DNA of 38,474 nt, taken from IMG/VR virus record IMGVR_UViG_2778261226_000006; one strand, given 5' to 3'. The notes below the pieces were generated by a model. That model was not told the origin of the DNA. It was given only the letters and a program-made list of their open reading frames with translations, and searched no databases. The DNA comes from a virus (lineage: Duplodnaviria; Heunggongvirae; Uroviricota; Caudoviricetes). Within the stretch, counting starts at the first letter, position 1; every line of letters begins with the position of its first letter. Shown piece by piece: positions 4,798 through 35,854 of this stretch. A program made the position numbers and the translations under genes.

Positions 4798-5624
4798 AAG
4801 AAATGCACCACGGAATTCATCATTTCCATGGGACGCCTGTCTGGGGAAGTGCTGGCGACGTTCATCGTATTGCGGTGAGCGGAGCTGGCGCTTTCGTCTC
4901 CTATGTACGACCAGATCAGATTGCGGCGTCCATTCAGCACGCTCAGGTCGTCGGCATTGATAACGGCGCATTTTCTGCATGGGTGCGTGGGCTAAAAATT
5001 AACTGGAGTGATTTTTATAAATGGCTCCTGAACTATTACCACCATCCTAAGGTCGCTTTTTTTGTCATTCCTGATGTTGTGGACGGAGGTGAACGTGACA
5101 ATGATGCCCTGATAAACGAAGTTCCGAAAATGTTCTACGGGAAGGCAACTCCCGTCTGGCATCTGCACGAGTCAATCGATCGGCTTATCGAGCTATGTCG
5201 TGAATGGCCTCGTGTCTGCTTTGGATCGTCTGGTGAATATGCGGCTATCAGAACTGCGCACTGGCATCGTCGTATGCAGGACGCTTTTGAAGCAATTTAT
5301 TGCCGACACAATTTCAAAACAGCTGTTCATGGTTTGCGCATGCTTGACGGTCGTGTGTTGGGAAATTACCCACTGGCGACTGCCGACAGTACAAATCTTG
5401 CCTGCAATGTCCCCAAATTTAATAGCAAATATCCTGAGCTGACGCGGGCTATTCAGGAGGCTGAGTATTCGCGCAATCTGACGGAAAAGGAGCTGAAAGC
5501 TGTCATTCTGAAAAACCGTTGCGCAATTTTAAAAGGTGCAATTGAAGCTGTTCGCCCACCTTCAGTTTCTGATTGGCTGTCGAATGGTTTGCAGCCTTCA
5601 CAGCTCGAACTGGAGATTGCGTAA
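4794..5624 (+). CDS. Unknown early protein, possibly a TGT/DpdA-like TIM-barrel (DNA 7-deazaguanine transglycosylase-like); function unproven
   Basis: Start overlaps the dam stop (GTGA) and stop overlaps the A start (TAATG). The motif series [39 protein letters not shown] resembles the strand-end motif order of tRNA-guanine transglycosylase-fold DpdA proteins as I recall them. Confidence 0.7.
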
Positions 5625-7996
5625 TGAACTACAGCTATTCCTGGAATGCTGAGAAAAAAGCAATCAATCCTTACGTAGAGACAGAAGAGCAATCTTCAGT
5701 TTCTGCGCTTTCAAACCTGATCGCTCTGTACGCTGCCGATAACGAGCAGGAACAGCTGCGCCGCGAGGCACTGAGTGATCAGGTCTGGGAGCGTTATTTC
5801 TTTAATGAATCCCGTGATCCTGTCCAGCGCGAAATGGAGCAGGATAAGCTCATTAGTCGGGCAAAGCTGGCGCATGAGCAGCAGCGTTTTAATCCAGATA
5901 TGGTCATTCTGGCGGACGTCAATGCCCAGCCTTCCCATATCAGCAAGCCGCTGATGCAACGTATTGAATACTTCAGCAGCCTGGGCAGGCCAAAGGCTTA
6001 TTCCCGCTATTTGCGTGAGACGATTAAGCCATGTCTGGAACGGCTGGAGCATGTACGCGACTGTCAGCTATCCACTTCTTTTCGCTTTATGGCAAGCCAT
6101 GAAGGGCTGGACGGCCTGCTGATCCTGCCTGAAATGAGTCAGGATCAGGTGAAACGCCTGTCCACCCTGGTAGCTGCGCATATGAGCATGTGCCTTGATG
6201 CAGCTTGTGGCGATTTGTATGTCACCGATGACGTTAAGCCAGAAGAAATCCGCAAGACATGGGAAAAGGTGGCAGCGGAAACCCTGCGTCTGGATGTCAT
6301 CCCGCCTGCGTTTGAGCAACTCCGCCGGAAAAGAAACCGCCGTAAACCCGTGCCCTATGAACTCATTCCGGGTTCGCTGGCGCGTATGTTGTGCGCTGAC
6401 TGGTGGTACCGGAAATTATGGAAGATGCGTTGCGAATGGCGGGAAGAGCAGTTGCGTGCTGTCTGCCTGGTCAGCAAAAAAGCATCTCCCTATGTCAGCT
6501 ATGAAGCCGTGATGCATAAACGTGAGCAGCGCCGTAAGTCGCTGGAGTTTTTTCGTTCTCATGAACTGGTGAACGAAGACGGCGACACGCTGGACATGGA
6601 GGATGTGGTAAACGCCAGCAGCAGCAACCCTGCGCATCGCCGCAATGAGATGATGGCCTGTGTTAAAGGCCTGGAGCTTATCGCGGAAATGCGCGGTGAC
6701 TGCGCCGTTTTCTACACCATCACCTGTCCGTCACGTTTCCATTCCACGCTAAATAATGGCAGGCCCAACCCAACTTGGACAAATGCGACGGTAAGACAAA
6801 GCAGTGATTATCTGGTCGGCATATTTGCTGCATTTCGTAAGGCGATGCACAAAGCCGGATTGCGGTGGTATGGCGTGCGGGTGGCTGAGCCGCATCATGA
6901 CGGTACAGTTCACTGGCACCTGTTGTGTTTTATGCGCAAAAAAGACCGCCGCGCCATCACTGCATTACTGCGTAAGTTTGCCATCCGTGAAGACCGCGAG
7001 GAACTGGGCAATAACACTGGGCCGCGCTTTAAGTCTGAGTTGATTAACCCGCGCAAAGGTACGCCAACAAGCTACATCGCGAAATACATCAGTAAGAACA
7101 TTGACGGGCGTGGTCTGGCTGGCGAGATCAGCAAGGAAACGGGTAAATCTCTGCGTGATAACGCTGAATACGTTAATGCCTGGGCGTCTCTGCATCGTGT
7201 TCAGCAATTCCGCTTCTTTGGCATTCCGGGGCGTCAGGCTTACCGTGAACTGCGATTGCTGGCTGGTCAGGCGGCAAGGCAACAGGGTGACAAAAAAGCA
7301 GGTGCGCCGGTACTGGATAACCCGCGCCTTGATGCCATTCTGGCTGCAGCTGATGCTGGTTGCTTTGCCACCTACATCATGAAGCAGGGCGGCGTACTGG
7401 TTCCCCGTAAATATCACCTCATCAGAACCGCTTATGAAATCAACGAAGAGCCGACCGCCTATGGCGATCACGGTATTCGTATTTATGGCATCTGGTCACC
7501 CATTGCAGAGGGCAAGATCTGCACTCATGCAGTGAAGTGGAAAATGGTTCGTAAAGCCGTTGACGTTCAGGAGGCGGCAGCCGACCAGGGCGCTTGCGCC
7601 CCTTGGACTCGTGGCAATAACTGTCCCCTTGCTGAAAATTTGAACCAACAAGGGAAAGACAAATCAGCTGATGGGGATACCAGAACGGACATTACCCACA
7701 TGGATGACAAGGAGTTGCACGATTACCTGCACAGTATGAACAAAAAAGAGCGCCGGGAACTGGCTGCAAGGTTACGCCTGGTGAAACCGAAACGGCGTAG
7801 AGACTACAAACAGCGAATTACAGACCATCAACGACAGCAGCTCGTCTATGAACTGAAGTCCAGAGGATTTGATGGCAGCGAGAAAGAGGTCGATTTACTC
7901 CTTCGCGGCGGCAGTATTCCGTCAGGAGCAGGCCTGCGTGTCTTCTATCGGAACCAGCGTTTGCAGGAAGATGATAAGTGGCGGAACCTGTATTAA
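5624..7996 (+). CDS. A: Replication initiation endonuclease (P2 gpA / 186 A, HUH rolling-circle nickase)
   Basis: HUH-type motif [13 protein letters not shown] and the tyrosine pair in [14 protein letters not shown]. Size and position match P2 A. The ATG 5624 start overlaps the upstream stop. Confidence 0.9.
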
Positions 7997-9825: not shown

Positions 9826-10350
9826 ATGACTGTTTTACACCTTGTAGCAGACCACCTTGTTAAGCAGGCTAATACAACCCATAGAAAGGGGGAGGTGCAC
9901 GCAATATTAGCAGATGCATATGGTCGTTCTGCTTTTAATCGGTATTATTATGCTTGTTTTCTTAACGTCCGTGAGTTTGTTTCAACTATTGATTCCAATT
10001 GGGGCAAGGTCAAGCATGCAGATGTTCCAAAATTATTACGTGATAGTGTAAGTAGAAAGATAGAAGTTGAGCTCCAAAAATCAGAAAAAATTGGCGATAT
10101 AACTTTATGTGAATATAAATCTAAAAAGAGCTTAATACGTACTTCACTGAACAATATGGCTTCAACTATGGCATTGGCATATACAATTAGGGGAGTTGTT
10201 GATTATGAGCCGGAAATTGAGATGATATTCTGTAATGGCAGTTTTTCGATTAATAAAACATCAGTGGCTTCGGCTAAGGGGTGGCTACAAACCATTAATT
10301 CAGAAAGATCGAAGGTTACCAGAATTATGAAGGAGATTGGCTTTGTCTAA
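9826..10350 (+). CDS. HEPN-like all-helical protein (174 aa), first gene of the retron-associated operon
   Basis: AYGRSAFNRYYYACFLNVREFV...KVKHADVPKLL and a distal AYTIRGVVDYEPE resemble the HEPN (PF05168-type) pattern: ...YYA.F.a...l....sH... then R...DY. AT-rich. The stop overlaps the next ORF. Confidence 0.72.
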   Translation: MTVLHLVADHLVKQANTTHRKGEVHAILADAYGRSAFNRYYYACFLNVREFVSTIDSNWGKVKHADVPKLLRDSVSRKIEVELQKSEKIGDITLCEYKSKKSLIRTSLNNMASTMALAYTIRGVVDYEPEIEMIFCNGSFSINKTSVASAKGWLQTINSERSKVTRIMKEIGFV

Positions 10351-11080
10351 CCAGAAAATATTATCAGAATTGTTGGTAAAATTCCCGTTTATAAAAGTTA
10401 AAGATGTAACAGATTTTATGGATACAATTCTGTTGATCATCCCAATTAACAAAATAGTACCATTGTCTGCTTCGAATAGTATAACAAAACGCCAGATATC
10501 TTTATTGGTGAAACGAATAACAGAAAAGCTAAATGTAAGAGTGTTGATTAGTTACTCACCATTTTCAGATAAAGACAATATTGAAGCGGCTTTAGTGGCG
10601 TTAGCGAGAAGTAATTTTAAAAAAGGGAAGATATCTGATTTGAATTTATCTTTCTTTGATTCGCAAAACGCAGTGCTTTATGTCTTTTGTAAAAACCTTA
10701 CATTATCAGAACGCGAGAAGTGGGAGTCGTTAGTTGTAGGGATATTAAACGGTTTTAATATAAAAGTGACTTCATTTGTATATGAGGCTAAAAATAATCC
10801 TGAACCTACAATGATGGTTATTTTAAGAGCGGCAAAAAAATGTCAGCCCTTTGATCTTCCAAGATTGTTCAGTCAACTTGATAATGGCGATTATCATATT
10901 GAATCACTTGATTGGCTGAATGGGAAGCTAGACAACTTACGTAAGAAAGGATTTTTATTAAGAAGCCATGACGGAACTTATAGAATGACATTGTCAGGGT
11001 TAGAAATAGTTCCAGTGACTAAATCTAGGCAAAGTTCTGATATAGAGAGGGTCCTTTATCTTGCACGCAAACATCTATAG
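10337..11080 (+). CDS. Unknown protein with C-terminal winged-helix-like domain (about 245 aa), second gene of the retron-associated operon
   Basis: Overlaps the upstream stop (TTG 10337 or TTG 10343, 7 nt after GGAG). The C-terminal segment MMVILRAAKKCQPFDLPRLFSQLD...LDNLRKKGFLLRSHDGTYRMTLSGLEIV looks like a wHTH with a beta-wing. The N-terminal alpha/beta region was not recognised. Confidence 0.72.
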   Translation: MALSNQKILSELLVKFPFIKVKDVTDFMDTILLIIPINKIVPLSASNSITKRQISLLVKRITEKLNVRVLISYSPFSDKDNIEAALVALARSNFKKGKISDLNLSFFDSQNAVLYVFCKNLTLSEREKWESLVVGILNGFNIKVTSFVYEAKNNPEPTMMVILRAAKKCQPFDLPRLFSQLDNGDYHIESLDWLNGKLDNLRKKGFLLRSHDGTYRMTLSGLEIVPVTKSRQSSDIERVLYLARKHL

Positions 11081-11089
11081 TGGTATATT
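11061..11089 (+). promoter_or_regulatory. Sigma70 extended -10 promoter for the retron ncRNA
   Basis: TTGCAC (11061-11066), a 17-nt spacer containing TG, then TATATT (11084-11089): TGgTATATT. The predicted start, about 7 nt downstream, coincides with the first base of the a2 repeat (11096). Confidence 0.5.
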
Positions 11090-11095
11090 CGCGTT

Positions 11096-11268
11096 GGTAG
11101 TGGCGTTCACGAGAGTATGCATCATGCTCATTTGTGAAGGTCGCGGACAGAATGTGCGCCTGCGAATCAGCAGTCGTTCCTTCGAAACGTCTGCTGATTC
11201 GCAGGCGTCATCAACGAAAGTTTTCATCAGCTTTGCTTAAGGATTGACCTTATGAAAACGCCACTACC
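11096..11268 (+). ncRNA. Retron msr-msd non-coding RNA (template and primer for msDNA)
   Basis: 12-nt perfect inverted repeats GGTAGTGGCGTT (11096-11107, a2) and AACGCCACTACC (11257-11268, a1). Short msr-like hairpins lie at 11108-11136. The long msd hairpin has arm GCCTGCGAATCAGCAG (11158-11173) and arm CTGCTGATTCGCAGGC (11191-11206), 16 bp perfect, plus a 4-bp inner stem. It lies immediately upstream of, and overlaps the start of, a retron-type RT. Confidence 0.7.
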
Positions 11269-12229
11269 CTTATTTTTCACATTCACTGATGCCGAACAGT
11301 TTCTTAAGGCGTTGAGCACACCGCTGAGAGATAGATATTCTGCGGAACTTATTCGACTACAAGGCCTCAGGCTTCCCCCATTAGTTTCTTGGAGTATCTT
11401 GTCTGTTGCCATTGGCGTAAGCCCACAATTTATTACTTCGTTAATTAAGAATAAGTCAAAATACTATCGTGTTTTTTCTATTTCCAAAGGAAGAGGAAAG
11501 AAAAAAAGAATTATTGAAGCACCCAAGGTTAGTATAAAAATCATTCAGTCTTGGGTCGCTCATCATTTAAGCATTAATCATAGTCTTGGCATAAGTGAAA
11601 ATGCATATGCTTTTATCCCAGGTAAGAATGGGATATATGAAGCTGCAAGTAAACATTGTGGTGCAAAATGGATCCTGTCTATTGATTTAAGAGATTTTTT
11701 CCATACGATCACTTCAGATATAGTGATTTCAACATTAGTTGAAATCGGATATAGAGCCGATCAGGCTGCTAAATTGAGTGAATTACTTACCTTGAATCAG
11801 AGACTTCCGCAAGGTGCGCCAAGTAGCCCTGTTATCTCAAATTTAGTATTTAGGTCAACTGACTTAAAGATTAATGAGTTGATTTCTAATACGGGTATTA
11901 AATATACTAGATATGCTGATGATTTGACCTTCTCCGGTGATGATGAAACATTTGATATCGAGGAACTTAAAGATAATGTTGTAGAGTTGTTACTATCTGA
12001 TAATTGGGTTGTGGCTGAGGAAAAACTCAGAATAGCTAGGATTCCTAATAGATTAAAAGTACATGGTTTTCTAGTTCATGAAAATAAACCTAGATTGACT
12101 AAAGGCTATCGAAATAAAATTAGAGCATATAAACATTTATTGAGGACTGGGAAAATAGTTGAGAAGGATTTTGATAAAATTAAAGGGCATGTTAACTATA
12201 GTGAATATATTGATAGATTGAATGAGTAA
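11252..12229 (+). CDS. ret: Retron-type reverse transcriptase (325 aa)
   Basis: RT motifs KKKRIIEAP, SIDLRDFFHTI, LPQGAPSSPVISN and the YTRYADDLTFSG (YADD) active site. Retron-style NAYAF is present, and LKVHGFLV sits at the position of the retron VTG motif. Size is typical of stand-alone retron RTs. Confidence 0.92.
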   Translation: MKTPLPLFFTFTDAEQFLKALSTPLRDRYSAELIRLQGLRLPPLVSWSILSVAIGVSPQFITSLIKNKSKYYRVFSISKGRGKKKRIIEAPKVSIKIIQSWVAHHLSINHSLGISENAYAFIPGKNGIYEAASKHCGAKWILSIDLRDFFHTITSDIVISTLVEIGYRADQAAKLSELLTLNQRLPQGAPSSPVISNLVFRSTDLKINELISNTGIKYTRYADDLTFSGDDETFDIEELKDNVVELLLSDNWVVAEEKLRIARIPNRLKVHGFLVHENKPRLTKGYRNKIRAYKHLLRTGKIVEKDFDKIKGHVNYSEYIDRLNE

Positions 12230-12249
12230 GGGCCTAGCCCTTACTCATT
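12221..12249. terminator. Bidirectional hairpin between convergent ret and Q
   Basis: AATGAGTAAGGGC-cta-GCCCTTACTCATT is a 13-bp perfect stem that spans both stop codons. Confidence 0.6.
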
Positions 12250-13280
12250 TAATTTAATGTGTATATTCCAAAGGATATGATTTTATCTCCTATCCAGTTA
12301 TTTAACTCTTCTAGTCTTCTCTGTAATGGTATTAACTCATTCCTCACAAAAACAAGGCTTGCCTTCTCCACATCCCCAAAACCCCCAACATTATTAGGCA
12401 TTATCCCCATCATTTGTGGGGGTACACGATGCGCCGCCATCATGTCGTCCCGGCTTACGTTCTTGATGTTCAGAAACTCATCCTTCGCCGCGACTTCTGA
12501 TAACGGGATAATCTGAAGTCCGTCCTTTTTGCCGTTAGGAGAGTACATAAACAGATTGCGGAAGTTACCTGGTCCTTTGGCGCTTTTCATTGCATTGCGG
12601 AGGTTGTTCACATCCTCCTGGTTTTGTGCGGCGTCGGTCATGTACATGATGAAGCCTGCATGACTGCCGTTGATGTAATACTTCCGGCGGAACAGCGTGG
12701 CGGACTCGTTGAGCAGGGCTGACGGAATGGCAGAAAGATAACCGGGCAGGCCGTAGATCTCCTGGTTGATGTCCGGTTCCATCAGATGAAAAATGCTGCC
12801 TTTCGTGAACTGATACGGCTGGGTTGTCATACCGTATTGCACAAACCAGTAGGTATCCAGGTCTAACCCGCGTCGGGTGTATTTTGCCAGAGCAGGCTCA
12901 AGGGCGATAACTTCACCAAACCGGTTCGTGCGTTTCTCCAGGTAGGCGTTACCAAATACCAGATAGTCCTGCACAAAACGTGAAAAAGCCTGTTGGCTGA
13001 GCAGCGGGTGAGGGATGTAGGTGCTGGTCAGAATGTTGCATTTCACCGCAATCGGTGAGCTGTGATGCACGGCGGCGCGGAAGGTTCGCGCCAGTCCGTC
13101 AAAGCTGACGGGAGGCTCATACCAGCGATCTGTCTGTACGCATTCCACATAGTCCAGCAGTTCGCGGCGGTCAAGTACTGGAATGGGATCACCGAAGCTG
13201 AAAGCCTCAGCCGTTGGAGCGTTGCCTGGTTTTGTGTTGTGATCAACCTTTACCAGTTTGATGTTTTTATGTTTGCTCAT
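12249..13280 (-). CDS. Q: Portal protein (P2 gpQ)
   Basis: 343 aa at the P2 Q position and orientation. Sequence is of the P2 portal family (…YGLPGYLSAIPSALLNESATLFRRKYY…). Confidence 0.92.
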   Translation of the reverse strand: MSKHKNIKLVKVDHNTKPGNAPTAEAFSFGDPIPVLDRRELLDYVECVQTDRWYEPPVSFDGLARTFRAAVHHSSPIAVKCNILTSTYIPHPLLSQQAFSRFVQDYLVFGNAYLEKRTNRFGEVIALEPALAKYTRRGLDLDTYWFVQYGMTTQPYQFTKGSIFHLMEPDINQEIYGLPGYLSAIPSALLNESATLFRRKYYINGSHAGFIMYMTDAAQNQEDVNNLRNAMKSAKGPGNFRNLFMYSPNGKKDGLQIIPLSEVAAKDEFLNIKNVSRDDMMAAHRVPPQMMGIMPNNVGGFGDVEKASLVFVRNELIPLQRRLEELNNWIGDKIISFGIYTLN

Positions 13281-13984
13281 TCTGCCAGCTCCTCGTTAGC
13301 AAGAGGCCATTCGCACATAAACAGCATTCCCCAGTCCTCTGCTGATAATTCTTTTTTCATATCATTCAGCCAGTTATCAGTAAACAACATTGCTCCTGAT
13401 GCTACTGCATCATCAGCGGTGAATACCATGCGGGTTACACTGTTGTTTCTGCTTAGCTTTTTATATTCCTGCCATGCCTCCGGGTTAGGGCTGGGAGTGG
13501 TGTAGTAGGTGGCGTGGTGGTGTGCGTGCAAGGACATTCCTTTGGCGAGAGTAATCATATTTCTCGGTGATTCAGCCCAGGCATACTCTGACACGTAGAC
13601 ATTTCCACTGAGTGCGGCGGCGTGGCACTTGAGGTCGATAAAATAAATGACCGCACCATTGGGAAACTCCAGATATGTTTTGCCAGATTTTATTTTTCCA
13701 GTGCGCGTATAAGCTGCGGTCTGGCTTAAAAATGCTGACACATAGGCTTTGACTGCCTGCGCTGATGCGGTGCTGCAGCAGAGGAAAATCTGGTTACGCC
13801 CGGTATGCAGTGCATCGATCAGGGCCTCATAGGCAAAAAAGAAATCCGCTCCTGCCTGGCGCATTTTTGTGAGTAAACGGTTTCTACTCTTTGGGCCAGT
13901 GTTCCACTCATACTGGTAATCAAAGAAAGTGCTATCCACCGGAAGTCCCGCGATAGTCATGAGGTTAGTTGGGATTGGGGGCAT
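13277..13984 (-). CDS. Terminase-large-subunit ATPase-domain paralogue (235 aa), lacking the N-terminal and nuclease domains
   Basis: Aligns by eye to roughly residues 150-395 of the adjacent gpP. FFFAYEALIDALHTGRNQIFLCCS matches FYFAHEALIDALLTGRNQIFLSAS. NVYVSEYAW matches NLYLDEYFW. YYTTPS matches YFSTPS. MLFMCEW matches LLMCEF. Start and stop overlap the P stop and the Q start. Confidence 0.8.
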   Translation of the reverse strand: MPPIPTNLMTIAGLPVDSTFFDYQYEWNTGPKSRNRLLTKMRQAGADFFFAYEALIDALHTGRNQIFLCCSTASAQAVKAYVSAFLSQTAAYTRTGKIKSGKTYLEFPNGAVIYFIDLKCHAAALSGNVYVSEYAWAESPRNMITLAKGMSLHAHHHATYYTTPSPNPEAWQEYKKLSRNNSVTRMVFTADDAVASGAMLFTDNWLNDMKKELSAEDWGMLFMCEWPLANEELAE

Positions 13985-15750
13985 CAAAAAATCTCCACAA
14001 TATTGCTGGTATTGGCGGACTCGCCCTGCAGCGGTTCGTTAAACAGTGCGTGCATTGTTGCCCAGGCCAGATCGGCATGGCTGGCTTCTTCGCTGCGGCT
14101 GGCTTCATAGGTCGGGCGGTTGCCGCTGGCGGTGGTGGCGCGACGGATTGCCATAAATGACTGCGCAATGTCGGTGTGCCCGGCGTCAAACTCCAGACGG
14201 CGGTGGCTGATAATGTCGTAGGCCTTGAGTACCAGGGCGTTTTTAACGTTGGGGTTGTAGACAAACTCCCGGACGGCAGGAAAGAACGCTTTCACGTTCT
14301 CGTAAACTCCGTGACCGACACCTGTCGAGTCGATACCGATATAGGTCACGTTGTACTGTTCGGTCAGTTTTTTGATGGCGTCAGCCTGGGCGCGGAAGTC
14401 CATCCCGCGCCACTGGTGACGCTCAAGAATGCGAAACTTACCGCCTGGCACGGCTGGCGGTGCCACCACCACGCATCCGGCGCTGTCGCCGTTCTGCGTA
14501 CCTTTTGCCGGGTCATAACCGATCCACACTTCTCGCCAGCCAAACGGGCGCAGGGCCAGTGCATGAAAGTCGGTCCAGACTTCCCAACTGTCCACCATGC
14601 ATGCCTGCAGCTCGCTGAGCGGAAATACGGACGCGAGATCGTCCACGAATTCACACATCAGCAGGTTCTGGTATTCGTCCGGGCTGTATTCCATGCGCAA
14701 CTGGTCAAGGTCGAACAGGTTACAGCCGCCGCGCACCGCATCTTCCACGGTGACTATCTGGCGGTATTGCCCGTCTGCACACAGCAGGCCTGGAGCCAGA
14801 TTGCTGTGGGACAGGTCGATGTCCACCTTGTCGGCTTTATTGCGCCCACGGTTGAATAGCGCACCGGACCAGAACGGATAAGCACTGTGTGTCAGGCTGG
14901 ATGGCGTGGAAAAATAGGTTTGTCGCCATTTTTTGTGAATAGCCATACCGGAAGCCACTTTGCGCAGCTCCTGGAATTTCGGTATCCAGAAATATTCATC
15001 CAGATACAGGTTTCCGTGGTAACTCTGGGCCGTGCGGGCATTGGTGCCGAGGAAATACAGTGTGGCCCCGTTGGGAAGCACCATCGGATCGCCTTTCAGC
15101 TCCACTTCCACTTCTTTGGCGAAGTCGATGATGTACTGCTTAAAGACGTGGGCCTGTGCCTTGCTGGCGGAAAGGAAAATCTGGTTACGTCCGGTAAGCA
15201 GAGCGTCAATCAGGGCTTCATGGGCAAAGTAAAAGGTCGCGCCGATCTGGCGTGACTTCAGCAGGTTGCGGATGCGGTTGGTTTTTCCGGCTTCCCACCA
15301 GTGGCGCTGGTAGTTGAACATGGAGGAATGGAAGATTTCTTCCAGCTTCTCAATCTGCTCATCGGTGAAAACATTCTTTTCCGGCTGACGGCGCGGGCCT
15401 TTGTTGCGGTTGGCGACGTTAGGGTTTAAGTCGGCTTCGTTGCCGCCATTGTTAAACTTGCCGATCCGCGCGTGGCGTTCCGACTGGCGCGCCAGCAGGT
15501 CAATCTCTTTGAAATCTTTCCCTTCTTTGTGCTCCTTCATAATGAGCTGGCAGTAGCGTGCGGCGGTGGTGAGCTGCATCTGATCCAGCGGCCCATAGTC
15601 ACCCCACTTGTCGCGTTTCTTCCAGCTGTGAACGGTTGCAACTTTCTCGCCCAGCATTTCAGCAATGCGGGCTACACGGTATCCCTGAAAGTACAGCAGC
15701 ATGGCCTGCCGACGGGGATCGAGATCTGCGGGTGTCAGTGTGGTGTTCAT
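13984..15750 (-). CDS. P: Terminase large subunit (P2 gpP)
   Basis: 588 aa with an ATPase segment (KSRQIGATFYFA, LYLDEYFW) and a C-terminal nuclease-type domain (IGYDPA...IGIDSTGVG). Occupies the P2 P position. Confidence 0.93.
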   Translation of the reverse strand: MNTTLTPADLDPRRQAMLLYFQGYRVARIAEMLGEKVATVHSWKKRDKWGDYGPLDQMQLTTAARYCQLIMKEHKEGKDFKEIDLLARQSERHARIGKFNNGGNEADLNPNVANRNKGPRRQPEKNVFTDEQIEKLEEIFHSSMFNYQRHWWEAGKTNRIRNLLKSRQIGATFYFAHEALIDALLTGRNQIFLSASKAQAHVFKQYIIDFAKEVEVELKGDPMVLPNGATLYFLGTNARTAQSYHGNLYLDEYFWIPKFQELRKVASGMAIHKKWRQTYFSTPSSLTHSAYPFWSGALFNRGRNKADKVDIDLSHSNLAPGLLCADGQYRQIVTVEDAVRGGCNLFDLDQLRMEYSPDEYQNLLMCEFVDDLASVFPLSELQACMVDSWEVWTDFHALALRPFGWREVWIGYDPAKGTQNGDSAGCVVVAPPAVPGGKFRILERHQWRGMDFRAQADAIKKLTEQYNVTYIGIDSTGVGHGVYENVKAFFPAVREFVYNPNVKNALVLKAYDIISHRRLEFDAGHTDIAQSFMAIRRATTASGNRPTYEASRSEEASHADLAWATMHALFNEPLQGESANTSNIVEIF

Positions 15751-25713: not shown

Positions 25714-26315
25714 TAAGTAAAGCTGTATTAAATAATGAACTCATCGCCACAAAGGCCGGAGACATTACCGTTTATAATTATGATGGTGAAACACGGGAAT
25801 ATATTTCCACATCAACTGAATATCTTGCTGTGGGTGTCGGTATCCCGGCATGTTCCTGTTTAGATGCTCCTGGCTCATATAAAGCTGGTTATGCAATTTG
25901 CCGTTCTGCAGATTTTAACTCATGGGAATATGTGCCAGACCATCGCGGTGAAATCGTCTATAGCACCGAAACAGGAGAATCAAAAGAAATCACAGTTCCG
26001 GGTGATTACCCTGAAAATACAACCACTATCGCCCCGTTAACGTCATACGATAAATGGGATGGTGAGAAATGGGTGACCGACACTGAGGCACAGCATAACG
26101 CCGCAGTAGACGCGGCAGAAGTACGGCGCCAGTCACTGATTGATGCGGCTATGGCTTCCATTAGTCTGATTCAGCTGAAATTGCAGGCCGGGCGGAAGCT
26201 GACGCAGGCAGAAACAACCCGGCTTAACGCTGTGCTGGATTACATTGACGCGGTGACTGCAACAGATATCAGCACCGCGCCGGATGTCATCTGGCCTGAA
26301 CTACCGGAGGCGTAG
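25710..26315 (+). CDS. G: Tail fibre assembly chaperone (gpG/U-like), expressed orientation
   Basis: The C-terminal half (...EAQHNAAVDAAEVRRQSLIDAAMASISLIQLKLQAGRKLTQAE...LDYIDAV) is of the tail-fibre-assembly family. The start overlaps the H stop. Confidence 0.85.
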   Translation: MISKAVLNNELIATKAGDITVYNYDGETREYISTSTEYLAVGVGIPACSCLDAPGSYKAGYAICRSADFNSWEYVPDHRGEIVYSTETGESKEITVPGDYPENTTTIAPLTSYDKWDGEKWVTDTEAQHNAAVDAAEVRRQSLIDAAMASISLIQLKLQAGRKLTQAETTRLNAVLDYIDAVTATDISTAPDVIWPELPEA

Positions 26316-26730
26316 GCCATTCAATATCTGGAGCACTGGAGGTATCAACCAGTTCCAGTGCGTCCAGATAATCCAGCCATAAATTATATTGTTCCAGCTC
26401 GTCACCTTTCAGACGACCAATAGCAGCTTTGCCAGGCCACTGATGGGTATTGATGTAGGTATTGACTTCTGAAACCAAAGATATTTTTTTCATTTCAGCC
26501 GCCAGCACCTCATCCTCTTTTGAAGGCGGCGGGGAATTAATCCATATTGGCCGTCCTGAACTGTCAGCGCCAATTTCTTTCCCTTCTGGATGCAGCCCAA
26601 GAAATTGCTCATATGTTTCTCTGGTAATTTCAATAACATCATCAGGAAGCGTTCCCGCATCCTCATATTCTGGAAACAATTCTTGCAGATAAAAACTTTT
26701 ACTTCCGGGTGAAAAGAATACTGAGTTCAT
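26287..26730 (-). CDS. Alternative tail fibre assembly chaperone (silent orientation)
   Basis: Same family (...HQWPGKAAIGRLKGDELEQYNLWLDYLDALELVD...). It is convergent with G and overlaps it at the 3' ends, as Mu U/U' do. Confidence 0.85.
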   Translation of the reverse strand: MNSVFFSPGSKSFYLQELFPEYEDAGTLPDDVIEITRETYEQFLGLHPEGKEIGADSSGRPIWINSPPPSKEDEVLAAEMKKISLVSEVNTYINTHQWPGKAAIGRLKGDELEQYNLWLDYLDALELVDTSSAPDIEWPTPPVVQAR

Positions 26731-26732
26731 TC

Positions 26733-27186
26733 TTACCGTCCAATGATTAACGCTGAGACGCTGGTATCTGAAGGAAAGGCTGCATTCAGTGGTTTGTCGA
26801 CTTTGAACACAATCGTATTATTCCCCCTGACAGCGGCAAAAGAACAAACCGCCGTCGCGTATGAACCTGTAATATTACTGGATACACCACCATAGGCTGT
26901 TGTTGATACCAGAGGGATAACGCCCAGCACCTTATTAGGAAATACAAAGGGCAATGTGGCTGTGGCAATATAAGACTTATTAGAACCTGTGATGGCATAA
27001 GCATTATCAGTCATTCCATTCATCGCCACTGGGCCGCTTATACTTACAGTAACCATCTGAATGATTAGCCCGTCAGGTTGACGAATCACAAAATTTCCAT
27101 TGCCACCAGTAGCCGTCCAGAAAGACATATCAGGGATTTGGTTTTCCCCGTTGCCCACATTCCGTTTTGCCGCTTCTCCCAAACCA
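26733..27186 (-). CDS. Alternative tail-fibre C-terminal cassette (promoterless; would fuse to H after inversion)
   Basis: The reading frame through the crossover gives ...GLGE|AAKRNVGNGENQ..., which matches the LGLGE junction in H. The rest is an unrelated beta-rich receptor-binding domain. The track ORF's first codons (27187-27227) lie outside the segment. Confidence 0.8.
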
Positions 27187-27199
27187 ACGTTTAAGAAAA
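27174..27199. repeat. Invertase crossover site, right
   Basis: TTCTCCCAAACC-AA-CGTTTAAGAAAA, in inverted orientation relative to 25229-25254 (central AA versus TT). Confidence 0.7.
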
Positions 27200-27254
27200 T
27201 GCAGAGGTAACAGCTAACTGGCATCATCTCCGGTTTTTATTCAGGGGGATGATC

Positions 27255-27821
27255 ATGCTTATTGGCTATGTACGCGTGTCAACAAATGACCAGAACACCG
27301 ATTTGCAACGTAATGCACTGAACTGCGCGGGATGTGAGCGGATTTTTGAGGACAAAATCAGTGGCACTAAGTCCGACAGACCGGGGCTGAAAAAACTACT
27401 CAGGACACTATCGGTAGGAGACACGCTGGTTGTCTGGAAGCTGGACAGGTTGGGGCGCAGTATGCGGCATCTTGTTACGCTGATAGAAGAGTTGCGCCAG
27501 CGTGGTGTGAATTTCAGAAGCCTGACTGACAGTATTGATACCAGTACCCCAATGGGCCGTTTCTTTTTTCATGTCATGGGTGCCCTGGCTGAAATGGAAC
27601 GCGAACTGATAGTTGAACGCACCAGGGCAGGGCTGGCTGCAGCTCGTGCCAAAGGCAGAGTAGGTGGACGCCGTCCTAAGTTGACCACCGAACAGTGGGC
27701 ACAGATTGGGCGTTTACTCGAGGCCGGAGAATCAAGACAGCGTATTGCACTGATTTTTGATGTAGGCGTTTCTACCATTTATAGAAAATTTCCGGCAAAT
27801 AAGATCAATGAATCCCCCTGA
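27255..27821 (+). CDS. Serine DNA invertase (Gin/Cin/Pin/Hin family)
   Basis: MLIGYVRVSTNDQNTDLQRNAL (catalytic Ser), ...LVVWKLDRLGRS..., and the C-terminal HTH GGRRPKLT...IALIFDVGVSTIYRKF. Confidence 0.93.
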   Translation: MLIGYVRVSTNDQNTDLQRNALNCAGCERIFEDKISGTKSDRPGLKKLLRTLSVGDTLVVWKLDRLGRSMRHLVTLIEELRQRGVNFRSLTDSIDTSTPMGRFFFHVMGALAEMERELIVERTRAGLAAARAKGRVGGRRPKLTTEQWAQIGRLLEAGESRQRIALIFDVGVSTIYRKFPANKINESP

Positions 27822-35634: not shown

Positions 35635-35699
35635 GCCGCCAAAGATAAGTAAAGTAGTTTCTAACTTATTGATTATGGAATGGAAGAATAGCAGGCAAC

Positions 35700-35742
35700 A
35701 AAAAACCCATCAACCTTGAACCGAAATGGCGGGGTTGATGGG
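35700..35742 (-). terminator. Rho-independent terminator of ybjL
   Basis: On the minus strand: CCCATCAAC-loop-GTTGATGGG followed by TTTTTT. Confidence 0.7.
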
Positions 35743-35854
35743 CTCCACAAAATGGGGACATCAAAGAAAAGCAGTGGCACTAATTAAGACTGATGCCCTG
35801 CGGAAAAGTTCTGCGGTTGTGCAAAAAAATTTCATTTTCAGGGCAACTTCAGTT

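Follow-up and report, generated by a model that had tools for sequence, protein, structure and literature searches.

An ATPase-domain-only terminase paralogue embedded between the terminase and portal genes of P2-like phages: a possible mimic or shield against terminase sensing

Why would a phage that already encodes a complete large terminase subunit (TerL) keep next to it a second, shorter protein made only of the terminase ATPase domain? The question is raised by a stretch of 38,474 nucleotides from a tailed virus (IMG/VR record IMGVR_UViG_2778261226_000006; hereafter, the window), which is a 186/P2-like prophage of Escherichia coli MFDS1016424 (NZ_CP106924.1). In its minus-strand late operon, the gene of the large terminase gpP is followed by an additional gene, here named gene X (and its product X), and then by the gene of the portal protein gpQ. 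Terminase is the most conserved phage protein and a main target of bacterial pattern-recognition immunity, through the sensors Avs1-3 and Upx. At the ATP-Mg site, which those sensors read, X departs from terminase in the Mg-coordinating pair, and this makes it a candidate escape device. Our best guess about its role, a tentative one, is that of a terminase mimic or shield against terminase-sensing immunity.

A genuine gene under purifying selection between gpP and gpQ

The open frame for X spans 13277..13987 on the minus strand, and its ATG at 13984-13982 gives a product of 235 residues, as described in an initial annotation made from the sequence alone. RefSeq lists the protein as WP_088551310.1, "terminase large subunit domain-containing protein". 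The features of the locus are the following, in window positions:

13277..13984, minus strand: gene X, ATPase-domain-only paralogue of the large terminase (open reading frame, BLASTP, Pfam, AlphaFold2 model, substitution rates, RefSeq)
13984..15750, minus strand: gpP, complete large terminase of 588 aa (Pfam PF06056, PF03237 and PF17289; canonical KSRQIGAT, LYLDEYFW and STPS motifs)
12249..13280, minus strand: gpQ portal, 343 aa, whose start overlaps the X stop (Pfam Phage_portal; annotation)
13982..13986, minus strand: stop of P and start of X, TGATG, 1-nt overlap (sequence)
13277..13280, minus strand: stop of X and start of Q, ATGA, 4-nt overlap (sequence)
13993..13996, minus strand: Shine-Dalgarno GGAG, 8 nt before the X ATG, within the last gpP codons (sequence)
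13289..13294, minus strand: Shine-Dalgarno GAGGAG for Q, 8 nt before its ATG, within the C-terminal X codons (sequence)

Both overlapping junctions that the initial annotation had reported can be read from the sequence: the gpP stop TGA (13986-13984) and the X start have one A in common, and the X stop TGA (13279-13277) overlaps the portal ATG (13280-13278). The P/X junction is T(G/A)ATG in 24 of the 24 loci inspected, with a P/Q junction of the same type in phages lacking X, and the X/Q junction is ATGA in 19 of 22 loci (GTGA in Serratia). The adjacency of P and Q elsewhere is also borne out, since the P stop overlaps the Q start directly in the X-less E. coli prophages L026 and L027. There, Q is preceded by the same GGAG motif, and in L026 the P and Q flanks are near-identical (about 96%). 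A search for a sigma-70-like promoter or a terminator-like hairpin flanking X found none. Given the overlapping junctions, the Shine-Dalgarno sites, and the lack of a flanking promoter or terminator, the natural reading is that P, X, and Q are co-transcribed and translationally coupled, so that X would appear alongside TerL.

The end of gpP contains the run A-TTT-TTT-GA (13992-13984, minus strand), where a -1 slip of tRNA-Phe would read TTG-ATG into X or, in phages lacking X, into Q. This run is absent at the Yersinia, Buttiauxella, Serratia, Pantoea ananatis (L008), and Atlantibacter junctions. A programmed -1 frameshift producing a P-X fusion was therefore rejected, as the run is not conserved and also precedes Q in X-less phages; its lack of conservation across loci makes it probably incidental.

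The family to which X belongs is found in Escherichia, Salmonella, Citrobacter, Klebsiella, Pantoea, Yersinia, Serratia, and Buttiauxella, and its members remain 225-254 aa long over a range of identity from 93% to 34%. A large protein database holds 55 clusters (at 90% identity) that are 93-34% identical to X and, save for a few truncated entries of 131-220 aa among them, measure 225-241 aa; it adds Leclercia and Phytobacter to the hosts. At every X locus inspected (E. coli, Yersinia, Buttiauxella, Pantoea, Phytobacter, Citrobacter, Atlantibacter, and Serratia), the order is P-X-Q. The initial annotation had allowed that X might prove to be a standard backbone gene of P2-like phages and had proposed recording its distribution. 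This distribution speaks otherwise: of the 1266 complete E. coli genomes that match P/Q, at least 20 carry X (a lower bound, as the search used megablast), and in most of the 1266 the P/Q region aligns in two pieces without an insert. A second terminase-like place is present in at most 21 of 484 matching phage records, and X is found in 8 of 185,579 species-representative genomes. Isolated, viable phages with X include vB_YenM_201.16 and vB_YpM_MLG42. X is an accessory, dispensable gene, not a backbone one.

Despite being dispensable, X is a genuine gene under purifying selection in P2-like phages. The ratio of non-synonymous to synonymous substitution rates (dN/dS; pairwise Nei-Gojobori, 52 pairs for X) is 0.21 for X and 0.05 for both P and Q, and 21 of 22 loci have an unbroken frame for X, the exception being Escherichia phage 500465-1. 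Divergence is fast: where gpP is 95% identical, X is 72% identical, and where gpP is 84-86% identical, X falls to about 40%. Within one phage pair, the synonymous rate dS differs several-fold among P, X, and Q, from which it follows that X moves as a cassette by homologous recombination.

Two database records of the family deserve a comment. In Escherichia phage 500465-1 (NC_049342; L002 4001-5758), X appears as a truncated ORF of 176 aa and the portal as two coding sequences, both frameshifted; since the portal is also split, these breaks are likely a sequencing or assembly error rather than decay. Annotation pipelines call X a terminase: Yersinia phage vB_YenM_201.16 (L037 1226-3759) and RefSeq equivalents thereby have two such genes, the additional one being named "terminase, ATPase subunit GpP" or "terminase large subunit", and this double "GpP" annotation could mislead terminase-based phage typing and phylogenies.

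Relation to the terminase ATPase domain and its active site

The gpP protein combines an N-terminal Terminase_5 helix-turn-helix (HTH), an ATPase domain, and an RNaseH-like nuclease, which Pfam recovers as Terminase_5, Terminase_6N, and Terminase_6C. The alignment of X by eye with the central ATPase domain only was the core of the initial annotation, and it is significant: in a BLASTP comparison with the neighbouring gpP, residues 18-226 of X match gpP 142-368 with 34% identity (E=3e-34). The sole Pfam match of X is Terminase_6N (PF03237), with 63.4 bits against a cutoff of 22, where residues 42-226 cover positions 6-200 of the 215 in the profile; Pfam gives no match to the nuclease domain Terminase_6C in X. 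The protein lacks the N-terminal region of about 140 aa and the nuclease domain, in agreement with the alignment span, the Pfam results, and the structural model, and its end corresponds to about residue 370 of gpP.

The AlphaFold2 model built on the family alignment has a predicted local distance difference test score (pLDDT) of 80.6 and a predicted template-modelling score (pTM) of 0.83. Its best Foldseek match in the PDB is the ATPase domain of T4 gp17 (2o0j; E=1.7e-8, query-based template-modelling score TMq 0.68), followed by the PhiV-1 TerL in its Avs3-bound form (8dgc_E) and the TerLs of P74-26, HK97, D6E, and Sf6. The model of X thus has the ASCE/RecA-like (additional strand, conserved glutamate) fold of TerL ATPase domains. 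A sequence-profile search of solved structures with X gave no match at E<=0.01.

How old is this paralogue? X is equally far from its own gpP and from foreign ones, with about 30-36% identity to every one of them, which indicates an old paralogue rather than a recent duplicate. The DNA similarity to gpP that the initial annotation had pointed out does exist; however, it is limited to one short patch of 67 nt (X nt 148-214 against P nt 523-589; 83.6%, blastn E=7e-15), and across gpPs the patch similar to X measures only 47-91 nt. Both observations led us to discard a recent duplication of, or gene conversion from, the adjoining gpP. In a neighbour-joining tree of short and long forms, which is indicative only, most short forms stand apart from true TerLs, and a few short sequences nest among the long forms and may be fragments or independent events.

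The motif changes quoted initially (KSRQIGAT to KMRQAGAD and LYLDEYFW to VYVSEYAW) are real. The patch and the active-site motifs lie at these positions:

13771..13837 against 15162-15228, minus strand: sole DNA-level similarity between X and gpP, encoding EALIDALxTGRNQIFL (blastn)
13844..13867, minus strand: Walker A-like K40-M-R-Q-A-G-A-D47 (gpP KSRQIGAT); Lys, Arg, and Gly kept, Mg-ligand Thr replaced by Asp (alignment)
13577..13606, minus strand: Walker B-like G127-N-V-Y-V-S132-E133-Y-A-W (gpP GNLYLDEYFW); Asp replaced by Ser, catalytic Glu kept (alignment)
13490..13501, minus strand: motif III T162-T-P-S165 (gpP STPS), kept (alignment)

Conservation was followed in a family alignment of 32 sequences and in a wider set from an exhaustive profile search, with 69 true TerLs (long forms) and 86 short forms. 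In the family alignment, D47, S132, and E133 are invariant; the adenine Gln (Q24), K40, R42, G45, E133, and the TTPS of motif III are invariant or nearly so; and the derived active-site signature is among a total of 31 invariant columns. In the wider set, the short forms keep the adenine Gln in 85 of 86 cases, the P-loop Arg in 84, and the P-loop Lys in 77. Every one of the 69 TerLs has a Thr or Ser in Walker A together with the Asp-Glu pair of Walker B. By raw counts, uncorrected for phylogeny, none of the 62 short forms with a Walker A Asp retains the Walker B Asp, its place being taken by Ser (54), Pro (4), Ala (2), Leu (1), or Gly (1); one of the four Pro forms has also changed its Glu to Asn. 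The canonical Walker pair is kept in 16 short forms, and the catalytic Glu or Asp is lost in 7. Since the two changes are coupled while the catalytic Glu, the P-loop Lys and Arg, and the adenine Gln are kept, the pocket is rewired rather than decayed, and the coupling suggests that it is selected for a particular non-canonical state. This coupled swap of the Walker A Thr to Asp and the Walker B Asp to Ser represents a natural experiment in P-loop metal coordination.

Other changes specific to the family include the replacement of gpP Q242 by Ala and the deletion of one residue at T240. Furthermore, the 69 TerLs have in common four motifs, each with a conservation of 81-100%, which the 62 X-type sequences show in relaxed or altered form or not at all:

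gpP 194-199: TerL motif SAS..Q, lost in X
gpP 236-242: TerL motif TN..TAQ, in the loop before the Walker B strand, lost in X
gpP 288-296: TerL motif H..Y..W.G, after motif III, lost in X
gpP 321-330: TerL motif G..D...R, lost in X

X therefore lacks three attributes of a functional packaging motor, namely the nuclease domain, the canonical Walker A/B pair, and the TerL-invariant motifs. The loss of the N-terminal domain, the nuclease domain, and the four motifs would mean that X does not translocate DNA and is probably no normal ring subunit. As for a possible DNA mimicry, charge gives little indication of it, with a median isoelectric point of 6.2 for the short forms against 6.7 for TerL ATPase regions.

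Candidate roles and genomic surroundings

The relatives of X are not confined to the P-Q junction. A sister clade from Providencia and Xenorhabdus consists of ATPase-only paralogues with the signature K.RQ.GAD...GDVY.SEWAW. In 23 of 27 IMG/VR loci, its gene is found downstream of the replication gene A and just ahead of the convergent Q/P genes, on the same strand as the early operon. Members occupy these positions:

L028, 5001-5750: sister-clade member in the post-A position
L031, 5001-5681: sister-clade member in the same post-A position
L118-L144, about 5001-5680: matches to the sister clade

This post-A site is the region of tin and old in P2 (the tin/old hotspot), where P2 keeps its exclusion genes according to Rousset 2022, as cited within PMC13601566. 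As X-type proteins are encoded next to the late packaging genes as well as in the early/hotspot region, the function of the module would seem not to be tied to the act of packaging, and the second placement argues against a purely late, packaging-bound role.

The way in which Avs sensors read terminase lends indirect support to the decoy role that the initial annotation had put forward. The TerL ATPase domain alone activates EcAvs2 (Evans et al. 2026, PMC13601566), which touches the γ-phosphate of the terminase ATP and the Mg hydration shell via a bridging ATP; active-site features are also read by SeAvs3, and Upx too senses the TerL ATPase domain (PMC13601566). Monomers appear to be the target of the Avs sensors (PMC13581612). 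X would then act as a molecular mimic of monomeric TerL. It would either occupy Avs1-3 and Upx, the host sensors for the TerL ATPase domain with its ATP-Mg site, or shield TerL from them by covering the ATP face of gpP. With its Mg site rewired, X would be unable to make all the ATP/Mg-dependent contacts needed to turn the sensor on. The sister clade, located after gene A, would supply such a mimic at an earlier stage of infection. The terminase mimic or shield is preferred because of the accessory status of X, its cassette mobility, its fast evolution, the second, early placement, and the mode of recognition by Avs2 and Avs3. A more specific form, possible although doubtful, is that X and the sister clade together are mimics of a pathogen-associated molecular pattern whose Mg-residue swap lets them bind sensors or cap TerL without licensing oligomerisation. 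If true, this would be the first decoy or shield aimed at bacterial NLR-like (nucleotide-binding leucine-rich repeat) pattern recognition, and it would account for the existence of stand-alone terminase-like proteins such as T4 vs.8.

Several points weigh against a mimic or shield. An interaction of X with an immune sensor is only putative, and both the isolated TerL ATPase domain and T4 vs.8 activate EcAvs2 instead of blocking it (PMC13601566). Because of this activation by isolated ATPase domains, a mimic could even be a liability unless the Mg-site change prevents it. That change is not universal in the family, since the P-X-Q members P0065, P0067, and P0071 keep canonical Walker A/B motifs and others lack the catalytic Glu, and the Walker A/B covariation is the uncorrected count given above. 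X has no match in PADLOC-DB 2.0 (0 at E<=0.01) and none in NCBIfam, results which are neutral as regards anti-defence. Finally, the strict, coupled embedding between P and Q across very divergent phages also fits a packaging cofactor.

Such a packaging accessory factor is the main rival explanation, which we consider unlikely in spite of its merits. Here X would bind gpP and/or the portal in the course of procapsid docking and tune the packaging of its own phage, be it as a non-catalytic ring or adaptor subunit, as an assembly chaperone, or as a regulator holding TerL inactive until assembled. This would account for the lack of an own promoter or terminator, and for the P-X-Q order with its coupled codons, which holds without exception from E. 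coli out to phages with a gpP of only about 40% identity. The retained nucleotide pocket and motif III also agree with it, as does the divergence of X, which rises roughly with that of P and Q and suggests co-inheritance. Inactive paralogues are structural subunits elsewhere, as in the case of the clamp-loader delta/delta', which serve structurally in a ring ATPase. However, X is dispensable and missing from at least 95% of the P2-like phages examined, its identity to its own gpP does not exceed that to foreign ones, with no sign of co-adaptation between partners, and it has lost the TerL-invariant motifs through which subunits or DNA are likely contacted. Moreover, the sister clade bears the same active-site signature in the early/hotspot region, away from P and Q, and the dN/dS of X is four-fold above that of P and Q. 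Should X be a packaging cofactor nonetheless, it would represent an inactive-paralogue subunit of a viral packaging motor, which seems to be undescribed.

Less probable still is that X is a weapon against other phages or satellites, poisoning in a dominant-negative way the terminase rings of rival P2-like phages or of satellites that use gpP. Ring motors are classically poisoned by ATPase-only fragments whose catalytic residues are altered, and the patchy, cassette-like distribution of X, its fast evolution, and the location of the sister clade in the hotspot that houses the P2 exclusion genes would all suit such a role. Nevertheless, X is 30-36% identical to its own and foreign gpPs alike, leaving no visible basis for sparing the phage's own motor, and its place in the late operon implies expression together with that very gpP, with nothing to suggest expression from the prophage. 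P4-type satellites use the gpP of their helper, so poisoning them would poison the phage too, and the lost conserved surface motifs of TerL argue against entry into the ring.

A non-functional remnant of a partial terminase duplication, or of a recombination between two P2-like phages, is very improbable and in effect refuted by the selection and conservation data: it could explain a partial copy adjoining its parent gene, the surviving 67-nt patch, and the truncated or frameshifted copies P0014, P0036, P0038, and phage 500465-1, but not intact ORFs of constant length down to 34% identity, a dN/dS of 0.21 that is not near 1, the 31 invariant columns including the derived active-site signature, the two junction overlaps kept in 19 of 22 loci, or the identity of about 33% to every gpP, which implies an ancient duplication. 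The remaining probability falls to some other explanation.

Beyond X, the wider family also includes short forms with canonical motifs in the P-X-Q arrangement (the metagenomic P0067 and P0071, and P0065 from Pectobacterium, whose identity of only 36% to the gpP beside it again speaks against a recent copy), and the degenerate short form P0097 is likewise found between P and Q.

On the other side of the portal gene, in the tin/old hotspot, the window carries a three-gene cluster (9826-12229, plus strand) with PADLOC matches to a type IX retron:

9826-10350, plus strand: HEPN_IX (PADLOC E=1e-52)
10337-11080, plus strand: HTH_IX (PADLOC E=2e-61)
11252-12229, plus strand: RT_IX (PADLOC E=4e-129)

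An Rfam scan at gathering thresholds found no msr/msd RNA of the retron. The cargo beside Q varies among X-bearing prophages between a retron, TIR, SEFIR, or hypothetical genes, which shows a rapid turnover of the hotspot cargo, independent of X. TIR-domain, SEFIR-domain, or hypothetical proteins are the portal neighbours in X-bearing E. coli prophages, at L019 1-212, L022 and L023 1-160, and L018 1-220. The possibility that X belongs to the type IX retron was discarded, as these neighbours vary independently and the X-less L026 has the same reverse transcriptase.

Two further elements of the window are unrelated to this locus. A full-length RybB small RNA (Rfam RF00110, 105 bits; 35697-35775, minus strand) belongs to the host chromosome, just past the right end of the prophage. 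At about 25979-27450 (L003 31780-33251), a RefSeq "recombinase family protein" lies beside oppositely oriented tail-fibre and tail-fibre-assembly genes, and this region (25979-27450) looks like a candidate invertible host-range segment of the Gin/Cin type.

Comparison with known systems

The initial annotation was not aware of any described function for X, and searches of the literature on decoy, truncated P2-like, or dominant-negative terminases and on the gpP Walker motifs likewise found no description of gene X. The nearest reference is gpP itself, with which X has in common the ATPase fold, the adenine Gln, the Lys, Arg, and Gly of the P-loop, the catalytic Glu, motif III, and the C-terminal "LxMCE(W/F)" helix. 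In contrast with gpP, X lacks the N-terminal HTH, the nuclease, and the four TerL-invariant motifs, has about 35 residues deleted after motif III, carries the Walker A Thr to Asp and Walker B Asp to Ser replacements, is dispensable, and evolves about four times faster.

Short ORFs with only the ATPase domain of TerL are also known from split large terminases, where ATPase and nuclease are encoded in separate genes, as in some jumbo phages, and the matches of X in BFVD include "terminase large subunit" entries of 231-244 aa. However, a complete three-domain gpP of 588 aa is encoded directly upstream of X, which makes X an extra copy and not half of a split enzyme.

Ksap1 and Ksap2, which activate Avs2 without being terminases, resemble X in being lineage-restricted phage proteins with a TerL-like beta-sheet core, and predictions place them in the pocket of Avs2 that receives terminase. 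Contrary to X, which is a bona fide Terminase_6N member, they have no recognisable sequence homology to TerL, and their genomic context is unrelated.

The closest parallel is T4 vs.8 (NP_049732), a stand-alone homologue of the T4 terminase ATPase domain with intact Walker motifs that is toxic in the presence of EcAvs2, and for which an anti-defence origin has been raised by the authors (PMC13601566). Like X, it has about 220 aa, resembles only the ATPase domain of its own TerL, and is lineage-restricted and non-essential. It differs from X in its canonical Walker A (GGRQSGKS) and Walker B (IIDE), where X has the D/S swap, and in its location in an early/middle region near denV, whereas X is coupled between TerL and portal. 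The vs.8 protein has no detectable homology to the X family profile A1 (hhalign probability 0.1%, E=0.56), each of the two deriving from the TerL of its own lineage. The X family, catalogued but uncharacterised, is the P2-lineage counterpart of these stand-alone terminase-like proteins, in kind and not by descent.

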